The notes below the pieces were generated by a model, which was not told the origin of the DNA, did no database searches, and saw only the letters and a list, made by a program, of their open reading frames with translations. Below are positions 1-4,514 of a stretch of 4,514 nucleotides of DNA, one piece after another. The stretch is taken from the IMG/VR virus record IMGVR_UViG_2585427748_000002; one strand, given 5' to 3'. The translations under genes were made by a program, and so were the position numbers. This DNA is from a virus. Lineage: Duplodnaviria; Heunggongvirae; Uroviricota; Caudoviricetes. The stretch's first letter is position 1. The number at the start of each line of letters is the position of its first letter.

Positions 1-166
1 GCTCTGTCGCTTCACTCAGTGCCATCAATGATGCTGCCGTCATTGGCACATCATTATTATCAGCATCCGTCCGGAAAAATTTCTCTGGCAACTTAAAACA
101 ATATCCTATATATCCGGCGTCTCCGGTATGTAGAACGTGAAGTTTTTAAAATTATTCATTTACCAT

Positions 167-679
167 TTAACTAATTTTTAGATCCTGGGGTACTCCCGTC
201 TTTTTCATTGCCTCCACGAAAGCGGAACTAACAGAACCTGACCAGTAATACTGGAACCCACTAACAACGCCCTGATAAATCATGGTTTGTGTAGCACCAC
301 CTACGTTTACGGTGATGTTACCTGCTTTACCACCGGCTAAATAAACAGCAGCTGTCGGTGTAGAGTTCGTCAAAAAGTGAGAAAGTGTAACGACAGCCCC
401 TACCAGCCTCCCTGATCCGCAGCTTGCGGCGTTTGTAATTGTACCTTTACTTTTTTCTTCTAAAGGCCAGTCAGCGCCAACTGCGCCCCAGTTATCAACC
501 TTGTCAGAGTATTTCCATTTATAGTACTCAGTTGCAATTTTACAGCCCATAGTTCGCCCAACCATTTGGCTCATCATAAAAGGTTTACTCAGTCCCAGTT
601 TGGTTCCGGCGGCTCCCATCCACTGCTCACCTGTTTCGCTCTTAGCCGAAGAGCCTACCCATCCCGATGTTACCCCCAT
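167..679 (-). CDS. Hypothetical protein of about 170 aa, Gly/Trp/Tyr-rich, no recognisable family; accessory gene downstream of stf in the position lambda uses for tfa
   Basis: The ORF track gives 167-724 with a TTG start, but the first ATG (679-677) is preceded by a strong Shine-Dalgarno GGGGGAG with a 5-nt spacer, so I place the start there. An in-frame stop at 749-751 prevents upstream extension. Stop TAA at 169-167. No signal peptide or transmembrane segment is visible, and there is no resemblance to lambda Tfa. GC content appears somewhat lower than in stf. Confidence 0.6.
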   Translation of the reverse strand: MGVTSGWVGSSAKSETGEQWMGAAGTKLGLSKPFMMSQMVGRTMGCKIATEYYKWKYSDKVDNWGAVGADWPLEEKSKGTITNAASCGSGRLVGAVVTLSHFLTNSTPTAAVYLAGGKAGNITVNVGGATQTMIYQGVVSGFQYYWSGSVSSAFVEAMKKTGVPQDLKIS

Positions 680-701
680 CTCATCTCCCCCTTCTGAATG
701 C

Positions 702-722
702 GTGGGGTGAGTGTCACCCCAC
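702..722 (-). other. Perfect 9-bp inverted repeat (stem-loop or protein-binding palindrome) between stf and the downstream gene
   Basis: Seen in sequence: gtggggtga (702-710), 3-nt loop, tcaccccac (714-722). It sits about 20 nt upstream of the SD of the 170-aa gene and has no following T-tract, so it is not a canonical intrinsic terminator. Confidence 0.4.
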
Positions 723-764
723 AATTTAAATTCAGTAGAAACCAGAAACTACAACAGCTGTCGT

Positions 765-2324
765 TTACTTCTCCCGGAGTTCTTTAATCTCATGACGAAG
801 TGTTTTAAAGCCCTCGACTAACAATGCAATTATGCCGTTGTAGTTAAGACGCAGACGTTTTTCACCAGATATAACGTCTGCGTCTTCAGTTACCAGTTCA
901 GGCAATGCTTTTTGTGCATCCTGAGCAATTAAACCAACCGACGTTTGCCAACCGTCGGCAGAGTACTGTATCTCGTAAAGATAACCAGTAAGTGCCTCCA
1001 GACGATCTAACGCATTATCCAGTTTTACCAGATTTCGCTTGTTGCGTTTATCCGAACGGATCTGAATATCGTTAAATGAGCCGTTTCCGGTCACCGTCAA
1101 ATTGCCATTAATACCACCATTAAAAGTTTGTGCCTGAGTCCATGTATTGGCAGTAGTAAGCAGTTCTGTTCCTTGCCCGGGGGCTCCTGTGTCTCCCTTC
1201 GGTCCCTGTGGCCCCGCCGGACCTGCTGGACCTGCTACTCCCGGATCACCTTTATCGCCTTTCGGCCCCGGCGCCCCTGCCGGACCTGCTGGTCCAGCCA
1301 CTCCCGGATCGCCTTTGTCACCTTTTGGCCCCTGTGCGCCTGCCGGGCCTGCAGCTCCCGTATCTCCCTTTGCCCCCTGTGGACCTGCATTTCCCGTCAG
1401 ACCGGTCTCTCCCCTGTCGCCTTTCGGCCCCTGCGGGCCTGCCGGACCAGCATCACCTGCCGGCCCCCGTTCACCGGTTGCCCCTGCCGGGCCGGTGTCG
1501 CCACGCTCTCCTTTATCTCCCTTCGGCCCCTGAGGACCCGCGGGCCCCGGTTCCCCCTTTGGCCCGGGAGGTCCCACCACGGTGGGGATTCGGTTTACGG
1601 CCTCTTCCGCCGCTATCCTGCTTTGTTCCGCTGACTGTGCGCTTTCTGCTGACTCCCGGGCTTTTTCTGTTGCGGTCGTTGCATCCCTGACTGCATTACC
1701 GGCTGCACTTTCTGCCGTCTTTTTTGACAACTCAGCATCTGTTGCACTTTGTAATGACTCACTGGCTTTTTGAGCGGCCGCAGAGGCCGAGGACGAGGAC
1801 GCCTCCTCTGACTGCTTTGCTGAGGCTGCACTTTCTGCCGCCTGCCGGGCTGACTCCGATGCATCCCCTGCTGAAGTGTCAGCATTTGCAGCGCTCTCTT
1901 CTGCCTGACTGGCTGATATGCCGGCATTCCTCGCTGACGTCTCCGCCTCTCCGGCATTCTTCTTCGCCTCCTCTGCGTTACGCACCACCTCTTCCACCAT
2001 CAGTTCAAAGCGACGCAGTGCCTCCGGACGGGCATCATCCTCCGTCATGGCACCGAGAAAATCATTCAGCGTACCGGGTTGAGAATCTTCATACACGGTG
2101 ATGGTCCCGGCATGTGACGGCGGGAACCCTTCCACCAACAGAATAACGCTGTACTGACCGTACTCAACGTCCATGCTGTAACGCCCGGCTTCATCCGGAT
2201 TTTCTGAGGCCAGCGTGTTCACCACCACCGTGGTGCTGTTACGTTTTGCTTTCAGCTGGATTGTGCAGTTCTGTACCGGTTTTCCTGTGCCGTCTTTCAG
2301 TACACCTGAAATCTTTACTGCCAT
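765..2324 (-). CDS. stf: Side tail fibre protein (lambda Stf-like N-terminal tail-attachment domain, Ala/Ser/Glu-rich linker, collagen-like Gly-X-Y tract, C-terminal intramolecular chaperone / peptidase S74-type auto-cleaving domain)
   Basis: The translation from the ATG at 2324 begins [36 protein letters not shown], matching recalled lambda Stf (orf-401). The ORF-track start at 2330 is a GTG two codons upstream; GGGGTG lies a few nt before the ATG. Track residues about 118-247 are an A/S/E-rich low-complexity region, and about 253-386 are roughly 44 Gly-X-Y triplets ([26 protein letters not shown]...). The C-terminus carries the motif [31 protein letters not shown], which fits the S-D-x-R-x-K auto-proteolysis signature of tail fibre and endosialidase intramolecular chaperone domains. 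Stop TAA at 767-765. Confidence 0.9.
1173..1574 (-). repeat. Collagen-like Gly-X-Y coding repeat tract inside stf, including an imperfect 63-bp tandem duplication at about 1206-1331
   Basis: Seen in sequence: GC-rich triplet periodicity encoding GPxGxxG repeats. The protein segments [21 protein letters not shown] and [21 protein letters not shown] are adjacent 21-aa units, with DNA copies at about 1269-1331 and 1206-1268 that are similar but not identical. The lack of stops here in several frames on both strands explains the stacked ORF-track hits. Confidence 0.75.
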
Positions 2325-2335
2325 ATTCACCCCAC

Positions 2336-2362
2336 AAAAAAGCCCGCCTGAACCGGCGGGCT
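2336..2362 (-). terminator. Rho-independent terminator candidate immediately downstream of lom
   Basis: Seen in sequence: 8-bp GC-rich stem agcccgcc (2341-2348) pairing with ggcgggct (2355-2362), 6-nt loop, followed on the minus strand by a T run (plus-strand A at 2336-2340). It sits 27 bp after the lom stop and just upstream of the stf start. Confidence 0.65.
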
Positions 2363-2388
2363 GTTATAACACTGTGTTACCTGGCTAA

Positions 2389-2988
2389 TCAGAACTTATA
2401 ACCGACACCCACGATGAAACCGTCAGTGCGCCAGTCGCCACTGCCGGAACCTTCATAAGCAAGGTCAATGGTCACGGATTCGGTCGGGTTAAACTGCACG
2501 CCAGCCCCCCACGCCAGAGACGTGTTGCTGTGGCGACCGTCATCACTTCCGGTCAGCACATCGTGCGTTTTCCCCTTGTTGTCAGTTACGCGGAGATAAT
2601 CCCCGGAGAAAGTCGACACACGGCTGTAAGCCACACCCACCATCGCATACGCGCTGAACCATTCATTCACGCGTACAGACGGCCCCACCATCACGCTGAA
2701 CCAGCGGTTACGCACGGAATCTTCATGCCAGCGGGTATCGCTGTAGTGCGTTTTTTGCTCATCCTCAGCATTGGCATAACTGAAGGACGTAATCAGCCCC
2801 AGCGCGTCCGTAAACTCATAACGGTATTTCACGTTAATCCCGTTCAGATTATCGCTGCCGGGAACGTTCGTCGAGGCATGGAGATACCCCGCGCTCAGCG
2901 TGGACTGATGTTCTGCTGCACTCGCTGGCGTAGCAGCGGCGACCTGCCAGACTACTGCGGACAAAATAACAGCACAAACTTTACGCAT
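2389..2988 (-). CDS. lom: Lom outer membrane protein (Ail/Lom/PagC/Rck family 8-strand beta-barrel); lysogenic-conversion-type cargo gene
   Basis: The 199-aa translation has an N-terminal signal peptide (MRKVCAVILSAVVWQVAAATPASA|AEHQ), the Lom-like stretch STLSAGYLHASTNVPGSDNLNGINVKYRYEFTD...RWHEDSVRNRWFSVMVGPSVRVNEWFSAYAM...GSGSGDWRTDGFIVGVGYKF, and a C-terminal aromatic F typical of outer membrane beta-barrels. SD-like GAGG sits 6 nt upstream of the ATG. The gene lies between J-like sequence and stf, as in lambda. Confidence 0.93.
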   Translation of the reverse strand: MRKVCAVILSAVVWQVAAATPASAAEHQSTLSAGYLHASTNVPGSDNLNGINVKYRYEFTDALGLITSFSYANAEDEQKTHYSDTRWHEDSVRNRWFSVMVGPSVRVNEWFSAYAMVGVAYSRVSTFSGDYLRVTDNKGKTHDVLTGSDDGRHSNTSLAWGAGVQFNPTESVTIDLAYEGSGSGDWRTDGFIVGVGYKF

Positions 2989-3012
2989 AATTACCTCTCG
3001 CTTTTCTGCAAT

Positions 3013-3036
3013 AAAAAAGGCGCCATTTCTGGCGCC
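3013..3036 (-). terminator. Rho-independent terminator candidate downstream of the Nu1::J ORF (tJ-like)
   Basis: Seen in sequence: the palindrome ggcgcc (3019-3024), a 6-nt loop, then ggcgcc (3031-3036) forms a GC stem, followed on the minus strand by a run of six T (plus-strand A at 3013-3018). It lies between the ORF stop (3056) and the lom start (2988). Confidence 0.6.
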
Positions 3037-3055
3037 CGTATATGGGTTATAAAAT

Positions 3056-4219
3056 TCAGCTGATACTGATGCCTGCGGTGGCTTTCTTCATCACCACAAC
3101 CAGCAAATCGCTGATACTTGCTGTGGGATACCAGTTATTCACCAGCCATGCTGATACCGAAAACTCCAGCGTCATGTGACCGTGACCGGCAGGCATATCA
3201 ATAACGCCACTGTAAATCAGCGTATTATCCAGCGCGGTACGGTTATAAATTTCAGCACCGTTTTTCCGCACTATCAGACGGCATGAGGAGTAAATATCAG
3301 TATGCTCTCTCTCATGCTTAGCGCCGCTGAATGCCACCGCCGGAATAACAATTTGCCGGTCAAAAGGCTGATCGTCATAAATCCTGACGGTAACGGTCCC
3401 TGATGGCCACCGCTCCGGTGCCCGGGAGTCCCGCGGAAAAGCCTTACCCACTGTTTTAACGAGATCGCCTTCAATCTGGTTCGCGGACAGTTTTCCCAGA
3501 ACCCGACAGTTCTCGTTAATCGTGACGTTGTTGAGCGTCCCGGAATTCGCATTCACGTTACCGCTGATATCAGCATTTCTTGCGGTCAGCCTGCCCTCCG
3601 GCGTCAGGGAAAACGTCGGGGGATTGCCGGACGAGGTGATACTCACCGCAAACAGCCGCTTCAGGAACACATCGTTCATGAACAACTGATTCCCCTGCGC
3701 CACAAATAACGGCGTGGTGTTGCCGTCCTCCGGGTTAATCATCGCAATACGGTCAGCCAGCAGCAGTATGTTGCTCAGGGGCTGGCCATCAGTATCCTCA
3801 AAACGCCGCTGCACCGACAGGGGGATCCCGTCGAGAATACTGGCAATTTCACCTGCGATCCGCGACAGCACGAAAGTACAGAATGCGGTTTCCACCACTT
3901 CAGCTGAGTCTCTGGCATTCTTCAGTTCCTGTGCGTCGGCCTGCGCACGCGTAAGTCGATGGCGTTCGTACTCAATAGTCCCTGGCTGGAGATCTGTCTC
4001 GCTGGCCTGCCGCAGTTCTTCAACTTCCCGGCGCAGCTTTTCGTTCTCAATTTCAGCATCCCTTTCGGCATACCATTTTATGACGGCGGCAGAATCATAA
4101 AGCACCTCATTACCCTTGCCACCGCCTCGCAGAACGGGCATTCCCTGTTCCTGCCAGTTCTGAATGGTACGGATACTCGCACCGAAAATGTCAGCCAGCT
4201 GCTTTTTGTTGACTTCCAT
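3056..4219 (-). CDS. Chimeric ORF: terminase small subunit Nu1 N-terminal 140 aa (winged-HTH DNA-binding and self-association region) fused in frame to a ~247-aa J-like host-specificity C-terminal receptor-binding domain; probable deletion remnant
   Basis: Translation starts [39 protein letters not shown] and stays Nu1-like through ...[13 protein letters not shown] (codon 140, plus-strand 3800-3802), matching recalled lambda Nu1. After that it diverges from Nu1 (lambda continues PELENRHVDF) into [27 protein letters not shown]...[34 protein letters not shown]. That tail ends 67 bp upstream of lom with a terminator in between, which is where the 3-prime end of J sits in lambda. ATG at 4219-4217, stop TGA at 3058-3056. 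Assignment of the C-terminal part to J rests on position and recalled similarity, not a search. Confidence 0.8.
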
Positions 4220-4240
4220 TGTTCATTCCACGGACAAAAA

Positions 4241-4408
4241 CAGAGAAAGGAAACGACAAAGGCCAAAAAGCCCGCTTTCAGCACCTGTCGTTTCCTTTCT
4301 TTTCAGGGGGTATTTTAAATAAAAACATTAAGTTACGACGAAGAAGAACGGAAACACCTTAAACCGGAAAATTTTCATAAATAGCGAAAACCCGCGAGGT
4401 CGCCGCCC
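4241..4408 (-). promoter_or_regulatory. cos: lambda-type cos site: cosN cohesive-end sequence plus cosB (Nu1-binding R1, R2, R3 elements and an AT-rich IHF-type site)
   Basis: Seen in sequence: plus-strand 4397-4408 aggtcgccgccc is the reverse complement of GGGCGGCGACCT, the lambda 12-nt cohesive end. Three copies of the cgtttcc(t/g)ttct motif lie at about 4244-4255 (R1, reverse orientation on plus strand), 4289-4306 (R2) and 4340-4355 (R3), with an AT-rich stretch at 4307-4335 between R2 and R3. Spacing from cosN to the Nu1 ATG at 4219 is about 190 bp, as in lambda. Positions 4409-4514 match the recalled non-coding right end of lambda (the cosQ side). Recognition is from memory of the lambda sequence. 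Confidence 0.85.
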
Positions 4409-4514
4409 CGTAACCTGTCGGATCACCGGAAAGGACCCGTAAAGTGATAATGATTATCATCTACATATCACAACGTGCGTGGAGGCCATCAAACCACGTC
4501 AAATAATCAATTAT

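Follow-up and report, generated by a model that had tools for sequence, protein, structure and literature searches.

A hybrid terminase-tail tip (Nu1::J) gene as the probable scar of an 18-kb head-tail deletion in a lambda-like prophage

How does a single open reading frame come to begin as the small terminase subunit of a lambda-like phage (TerS, Nu1) and to end as the receptor-binding part of its tail tip protein (J)? Such a frame, encoding 387 aa at 3056..4219 on the minus strand, lies in the window, i.e., the whole 4,514-bp stretch of DNA analyzed here, which is identical to contig JORO01000079.1 (GCA_000713235.1; locus L003). The window is very probably the right-hand part of a defective lambda-like prophage in which a single deletion of approximately 18 kb left, by chance, an in-frame Nu1::J product. 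All its genes are on the minus strand, and their order is that of the lambda late region:

4220..4514, minus: cos region and end of the late/lysis region, 98.1% identical to lambda/DE3 prophage-form records across cos
4409-4514, minus: homologue of the lambda right end, by comparison with lambda
4408-4397, minus: cosN, 12-nt cohesive-end sequence GGGCGGCGACCT, exact and intact
4396-4220, minus: cosB side, equivalent of lambda bp 13-190, with 97.4% identity to lambda bp 1-190
3800..4219, minus: Nu1', codons 1-140 of the terminase small subunit gene (Pfam Phage_Nu1; 98.6% aa identity to lambda Nu1)
3800..3801, no strand: deletion junction with a 2-bp microhomology (base-level three-way alignment with the intact relative L011)
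3056..3799, minus: 'J, last 247 codons, ending at the native stop codon of J (99.7% nt identity to L011 J nt 2729-3474)
3037..3018, minus: terminator-like hairpin and T-run in the J'-lom spacer (positional equivalent in lambda, 18920-18935)
2389..2988, minus: lom, intact gene of an Ail/Lom outer-membrane beta-barrel, 199 aa (Pfam Ail_Lom 1-199 of 199, E 5e-124)
2341..2362, minus: terminator-like hairpin 3' of lom (lambda equivalent 19612-19633)
765..2324, minus: stf, intact side tail fibre gene, 519 aa from ATG (Pfam phage_tail_N, Collagen and Peptidase_S74; gene call in L003)
167..679, minus: Gp38-like tail-fibre adhesin gene, 170 aa from ATG (Pfam Gp38_N; annotated in relatives as 'receptor recognizing protein Gp38')
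1..166, minus: DUF4376 tail-fibre-assembly-like pseudogene fragment at the contig edge, collinear with L011 20001-20166

The product of stf combines a lambda-like N-terminal domain, collagen-like Gly-X-Y repeats and a C-terminal S74 intramolecular chaperone (Pfam). No homologue of A (terL) was found anywhere in the window by open reading frames, alignment or Pfam. Downstream of the hybrid gene, the lambda-like J-lom spacing and the tJ-like terminator of the original prediction are both present: the spacer measures 67 nt vs 61 nt in lambda, and the hairpin with its T-run lies within it. In L011, the DUF4376 pseudogene is situated at the prophage end, adjoining the host genes ykgJ-like and potB.

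The original prediction, made from the DNA letters, had the frame running from Nu1 codon 140 without a stop into a J-like C-terminal domain (residues 141-387), and profile searches bear out both halves. Pfam Phage_Nu1 covers hybrid residues 1-143 (E 3e-87), residues 1-140 being 98.6% identical to lambda Nu1 1-140, and the TerS DNA-binding domain is matched in the PDB by 1J9I over residues 1-68 and by 6HN7 over residues 1-98. On the J side, where a lack of similarity to J-family C-termini would have spoken against the prediction, such similarity is extensive: Phage_Tail_Tip is found on residues 141-228, N-terminally truncated (profile positions 42-138 of 139), Ig_GpJ_C (PF12421) on residues 257-387 over its full profile (1-135 of 135, E 5e-38), so that the predicted gain of the J receptor-binding region amounts to a complete domain, and the gpJ structures 8IYK, 8XCJ and 9WCA match residues 138-387. 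The frame thus consists of Nu1 codons 1-140 and the last 247 J codons.

Although residues 1-140 match lambda gpNu1 and residues 141-387 show homology to the C-terminus of gpJ with its receptor-binding domain, both parents are incomplete in the hybrid. TerS proteins have been described as consisting of an N-terminal wHTH, a central oligomerisation domain and a TerL-binding region in approximately the last 40 residues (PMC9026076). On this map, the Nu1 part keeps the wHTH DNA-binding domain and the central oligomerisation region, while the TerL (gpA)-binding C-terminus (Nu1 141-181) is absent, collinearity with Nu1 stopping at residue 140 of 181; the predicted division between what is kept and what is lost therefore holds, with about 40 residues missing. 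Codon 140 is followed by J and not by the adjacent, overlapping terL (A) gene of a lambda-type TerS. The J part corresponds to aa 911-1157 of J in the intact relative, a protein of 1157 aa, i.e., part of the central fibre and the whole receptor-binding domain; the N-terminal TipJ hub, the FN3/Ig domains and most of the fibre are gone, and, unlike longer Nu1::J fusions, the hybrid gives no Pfam match to Ig_J or Ig_J_second. Hybrid residues 131-386 are 52.9% identical to lambda J 879-1131, and with a receptor-binding domain only about 53% identical to that of lambda gpJ, receptor specificity may differ. Since the TerL-binding tail, a terL partner and the J hub domains are all lacking, the hybrid appears unable to take part in packaging or in the building of tails and most likely represents an inert by-product, the transcription of which would occur only as part of the late operon, read through cos from the lysis genes. 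Public records (NCBI accessions) name it either 'terminase small subunit' or 'DUF1983 domain-containing protein'.

The origin of the join can be read from the best relative among complete Escherichia coli genomes, the intact prophage of NZ_AP045820.1 (L011), in which the genes are ordered Rz-orf46-ynfO-like-Nu1-A-W-B-C-D-E-FI-FII-Z-U-V-G-T-H-M-L-K-I-J-lom-stf. The window aligns with L011 in two blocks, 1-3801 at 98.5% identity (the J part alone at 99.7%) and 3790-4514 at 96.4%. Collinearity on the J side extends up to 3801 and on the Nu1 side from 3800 upward, which places the join at 3800-3802, within 1-2 nt of the frame switch predicted at 3799/3800. The bases common to both parents are AA on the plus strand, i.e., TT in codon 140 (TTT) on the coding strand, so that inspection of the junction for microhomology yields 2 bp, set in a weak imperfect patch (TTCCGGA-ACTG in Nu1 and TTGAGGATACTG in J). 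The block absent with respect to L011 measures 17,980 bp, or roughly 17.6 kb in lambda coordinates, in keeping with the 17-18 kb of head and tail genes on the lambda map; it comprises A (terL), all head genes, the tail-shaft and tip-assembly genes through I, and J codons 1-910 (the first 79% of the gene). Sibling contigs reaching further upstream are about 97% collinear with L011 back to Rz, and the order Rz-orf46-ynfO-like-cos-Nu1'-'J-lom-stf is that of L011 minus 17,980 bp, as expected of a defective prophage. With both flanks collinear with an intact prophage, the proposal of a single deletion stands, as does the survival of cos, lom and stf (cosN exact, lom and stf intact by Pfam), to which the Gp38-like adhesin gene can be added. 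One illegitimate recombination event, at the level of a 2-bp microhomology, would have fused Nu1 codon 140 with J codon 911 and would have removed about 18 kb with terL, the head, tail-shaft and tip-assembly genes and most of J. It is because this join happened to keep the J reading frame that gene callers report a 387-aa hybrid. Judged by the loss of terL, head and tail genes at this locus, the prophage would be defective.

A join observed on a short contig could also be an assembly mis-join of two lambdoid prophages, or a contaminant shared between data sets. All carrier contigs are indeed short (about 3-5 kb, none exceeding 4.8 kb), with prophage repeats at their ends, none of 5,426 complete E. 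coli genomes has the junction, every match to the window in these genomes ending at 3801, and an exact-pattern search of species-representative genomes, IMG/VR and JGI metagenome contigs did not recover it. However, 12 contigs encode exactly this 387-aa protein; they come from approximately 10 isolate assemblies and 2 metagenome assemblies that differ in contig naming style and end points, and the junction from F140 to J 911 is confined to its own cluster of one sequence. The DNA of the carriers is identical from 4081 down to 1276, whereas all differences lie at or above 4082, i.e., within Nu1 codons 1-46, in cos and upstream of it, and define at least four haplotypes, one of which (L010) has a different cosN. 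As only 2 bp are common to the parents, there is no k-mer repeat at the join by which a de Bruijn assembler could be misled, and the several flanking haplotypes speak against a single contaminant; moreover, analogous junctions are present in complete genomes. An artefact at about 3800, which the original prediction had itself named as a danger, is thereby excluded as far as assemblies permit and must be regarded as extremely improbable. The junction is real, and recombination has since taken place on its cos side.

The hybrid could alternatively belong to a conserved natural protein family accompanied by intact morphogenesis genes. The architecture does recur: protein searches revealed at least 12 other in-frame Nu1::J fusions in E. 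coli, of 362-670 aa (e.g., P0002-P0019), which share with the hybrid the succession Phage_Nu1, Phage_Tail_Tip and Ig_GpJ_C, the same gene neighborhood and cos upstream. Their junctions differ, however, Nu1 residue 131/132 or 169 being joined to at least eight J positions, at other loci and with other J alleles. In the six contexts examined, the fusions lie at the Qin locus or att-lambda, preceded by lysis/ynfO-like genes and followed by lom-stf, and head or tail genes were found near none of them (0/6). As no morphogenesis genes accompany the fusions in these six contexts, they are better regarded as parallel deletion remnants than as a natural family, for which one common junction and intact morphogenesis genes alongside would be expected.

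Similar losses are not limited to those leaving an open frame. When a composite probe, made of cos and Nu1 nt 1-390 joined to lom and the N-terminus of stf, was searched against complete E. coli genomes, 38 of them displayed the two parts 1.4-2.7 kb apart, in at least 14 span classes, none of which has the junction of the window. Mapping of one representative per span class onto L011 located left breaks near cos, at Nu1 nt 46, 211, 268, 288, 457 and 507, and at A nt 170, 205, 246 and 1048, with right breaks scattered over J and lom; portal, V and I contain additional internal scars. Among the eight Nu1-anchored junction classes, which were collected independently of frame, a single one is in frame (L033, Nu1(1-169)::Lom, which bears the annotation of an Ail/Lom protein). 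Chance alone would put one-third of the joins in frame, and the observed share does not exceed this, so that the open frame of the window looks fortuitous, and selection for in-frame joins was rejected on the same count. The excess of in-frame joins in protein searches reflects a detection bias: ranking favors long matches, and short out-of-frame tails are probably absorbed into large Nu1 clusters.

Deletion scars of this kind are a common form of prophage decay, long annotated in E. coli K-12. In Qin (nohA-stfQ), a lambda-type Nu1 remnant likewise adjoins side-tail-fibre genes after loss of the head-tail block, with the cos-proximal ynfO/ydfO and lysis genes kept upstream and the left break in the 3' part of Nu1 (nt 529). 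In contrast to the window, its right break falls within stf, with the consequence that J and lom have been lost as well, and the join is out of frame, NohA consisting of Nu1 1-176 and 13 unrelated residues; moreover, Qin sits at ydfJ, whereas the prophage type of the window is collinear with one adjoining potB in NZ_AP045820.1. In DLP12 (nohD-aaaD-tfaD), the head and tail genes are also missing, the left break is just past Nu1, inside A, and the cos-proximal ylcI/ybcV/bor and lysis genes are kept. Unlike in the window, the whole of Nu1 is present, a 5' piece of A persists as a pseudogene (aaaD) and the right break falls within the region of tail-fibre assembly. In annotation, the 387-aa product should accordingly be flagged as a fusion or pseudogene, since it is a deletion scar; its junction is lineage-specific and could serve as a typing marker. 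By itself, the hybrid scar matters little, being one more defective lambdoid prophage.

A deletion origin would still be compatible with mobility, if the remnant were packaged and transferred in trans by a co-resident phage of lambda specificity, in the manner of a cosmid or a satellite. The exact cosN and a cosB 97.4% identical to that of lambda would allow it, the several cos-proximal haplotypes of the carriers are consistent with exchange among prophages, and in O157 Sakai, other prophages help to package and transfer defective lambdoid prophages that are devoid of head, tail or packaging genes (PMC2669165). Against this stand the absence of excision or replication functions on the short carrier contigs and the lack of any hallmark of a dedicated satellite: cos is of the lambda type, and the neighbors in the window and in sibling contigs are ordinary lambdoid late genes, not those of a phage-inducible chromosomal island (PICI) or satellite. 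Furthermore, lambda packaging has a minimum genome size, and with about 18 kb lost from a genome of roughly 45-50 kb, a monomer would probably fall below it. Mobility of this kind is therefore judged unlikely. A selected function is still less probable, and indeed very improbable, for the Nu1(1-140) moiety, which would act as a dominant-negative or decoy by binding cosB or by forming TerS heterodimers, thus hindering the packaging of related lambda-like phages. It can be argued in its favor that the part kept spans the dimer interface of the TerS DNA-binding domain and the long alpha3 helix, which mediate TerS dimerisation and the formation of Rpp-TerS heterodimers (PMC9026076), that the native ribosome-binding site and start codon of Nu1 are intact, and that many independent deletions cut Nu1 at residues 131-176, keeping its N-terminal two thirds; the other in-frame Nu1::J fusions likewise leave some room for a selected truncated Nu1, independently of the frame that follows. 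PICI Rpp offers a likeness at the level of what could work: it is also a TerS-type DNA-binding/dimerisation module without a TerL-binding domain, located by cos (PMC9026076), but it forms a distinct conserved family in dedicated islands with their own cos specificity, whereas the hybrid is a truncated Nu1. Several observations weigh against selection: junctions also occur early in Nu1 (nt 46, 211, 268, 288) and in A, in-frame joins are not enriched, and the sample of Nu1 fusions is skewed to long Nu1 parts by score ranking. Late-operon genes of lambda are, in addition, silent in lysogens. A chance deletion product remains the preferred reading of the hybrid.

In E. coli as a whole, Nu1 nt 507 is the position at which the left ends of these deletions accumulate; the junction of the window, at nt 420, lies outside this hot spot. 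In-frame Nu1::J breaks fall after residue 169 (with seven J partners), after 131/132 (four) and, in the window, after 140. A search with full-length Nu1 returned 27 distinct tails starting exactly after I169 (nt 507, between GAACTGATA and CCGGGG), as compared with four after residue 170, three after 168 and at most four elsewhere, in a sample of fusion proteins skewed to long Nu1 parts and long tails but with a stark contrast within the sampled residues 145-181. Among the partners fused at I169, with tails of which some are in frame and others are not, are A, portal, capsid, FI, U, V, J, lom, stf, tfa and an integrase, and a left end at nt 507 is common to three classes from complete genomes (L024, L028, L033). 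Five of the 13 distinct left sites end in TA, vs a 3% background (p ~3e-5), and microhomologies range from 0 to 6 bp. Descent of all nt-507 junctions from one ancestral fusion by nested deletions is a strained explanation, as several Nu1 haplotypes are found among the carriers, whose J parts diverge by 5-30% at the DNA level and whose loci are different (Qin and att-lambda). The nucleotide precision of the pile-up is indicative of a mutational hot spot rather than of selection at a domain boundary, which again speaks against a selected truncated TerS.

More broadly, head-tail loss might be non-random, either channelled through the nt-507 hot spot (CTGATA before and CCGGGG after the break; a minor site at nt 395, and others) by a site-specific break or replication stall, or accompanied by the retention of TerS-deltaC proteins, Nu1(1-140)::J included, as a poison of the packaging of related phages, or both, in which case the hybrid would be a product of directed domestication. 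This proposition is improbable; the agent at the hot spot would be, e.g., a nuclease, a Chi-like element or a template-switch pause site. The survey of frequent and diverse head-tail deletions with left ends concentrated in Nu1 may nevertheless matter more than the hybrid: if a defined mechanism were behind the concentration at nt 507, this would be of relevance to the ways in which prophages are disarmed by bacteria or by competing phages, and the hot spot may be the sole part of this case worth further attention. Among candidate causes, an IS insertion hot spot at nt 507 is unsupported, the one nu1::IS case checked (Sakai Sp4) being an ISEc8 at about nt 262, and so is a hairpin or quasi-palindrome, the single-stranded DNA fold of lambda 551-760 having a z-score of only -1.3. 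A pseudo-crossover of a Pin/Gin-type invertase, a secondary att site of lambda Int and the Chi-like GCTGGATG located 8 nt upstream all seem, by their consensus sequences, to fit the exact break positions poorly. On the right-hand side, a 'hot' J need not be invoked, the coincidences observed being about those expected by chance; J breakpoints must fall at Ile/Met codons because of the in-frame requirement combined with an AT-type microhomology.

Where lambdoid prophages of E. coli have lost head-tail genes by deletion, the left ends of the deletions accumulate at nt 507 of Nu1, the terminase small subunit, directly after codon I169 (...CTGATA|CCGGGG). In a sample of Nu1 fusion proteins that is biased toward long Nu1 parts and long tails, 27 distinct fusion tails follow I169, while every other residue is followed by at most four, and the partners joined at nt 507 range from A through to an integrase. 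A second cluster of left ends is found at nt 395 of Nu1 (GGGAT|CCCC). Among the 13 distinct left sites, five are terminated by TA, for which the background is 3% (p~3e-5).

Nu1 nt 507 break: would equal window position ~3713 (minus strand) if the gene were intact; found in E. coli loci L015, L019, L020, L021, L024, L028, and L033, and in fusion proteins P0134-P0185

In L033 (NZ_CP036202.1, 3303788-3304522), Nu1(1-169) is fused in frame to Lom(125-199), giving a protein of 244 aa, and the same fusion is found in 13 more complete genomes (H114-H127). It is labeled by PGAP as "Ail/Lom family outer membrane beta-barrel protein"; since both the signal peptide of Lom and ~60% of the barrel are absent, this annotation is misleading. 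NohA of K-12 (189 aa; Qin prophage locus L036, 5799-6368) is likewise a fusion product, in which collinearity with Nu1 extends up to nt 529 (...GAATATA|ACCGCG) and is followed by 13 out-of-frame residues from stfQ; it is annotated as "putative prophage DNA-packaging protein", with no mention of the fusion. In prophage Sp4 of O157 Sakai (L038, 27126-30081), nu1 is interrupted ~262 nt into the gene by ISEc8, an element of the IS66 family, and each half carries its own annotation as a small protein.

Between the window and the contigs with an identical junction (L001, L002, and L004-L010), differences are confined to the part upstream of 4082 (compared over 4082-4514), which comprises Nu1 codons 1-46, cos, and the sequence beyond. 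The restriction of the variation to this part, where at least four haplotypes can be distinguished, suggests that sequence has been exchanged here with other lambdoid prophages resident in the host, by gene conversion or recombination. The metagenome contig L010 has a different cosN (GGGCGGAAGGCG) and four synonymous changes in Nu1, and for these differences the assembly of mixed strains is a possible alternative source. The loci L017 (LVPE01000058.1) and L018 (CAXJJS010000001.1) carry the same Nu1::J remnant (P0016), and in both the left flank is that of att-lambda (ybhC, int, xis). The right flank of L017 is of the Qin type (pin, ynaE-like, ydfJ, ydfI), not bioA/bioB, and this combination points to either a chromosomal rearrangement via recombination between two prophages or a mis-join in the L017 draft.

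Two tail-fibre genes are found in the window:

765-2324, minus strand: stf, with a lambda-type N-terminal domain, a collagen-like Gly-X-Y repeat stretch of ~170 residues, and an intramolecular chaperone of the S74 type
167-679, minus strand: Gp38-like adhesin gene, after stf, where the classical tfa would be

The stf gene of the window is intact, whereas in L011, the closest complete relative, it is split into a pseudogene and a fragment. Several long ORFs (114-168 aa) at 1128-1957, some antisense to stf and some in its alternative frames, overlap its collagen-repeat and Ala/Ser-rich part; they were rejected as genes, as they arise from the GC-rich repeat composition.
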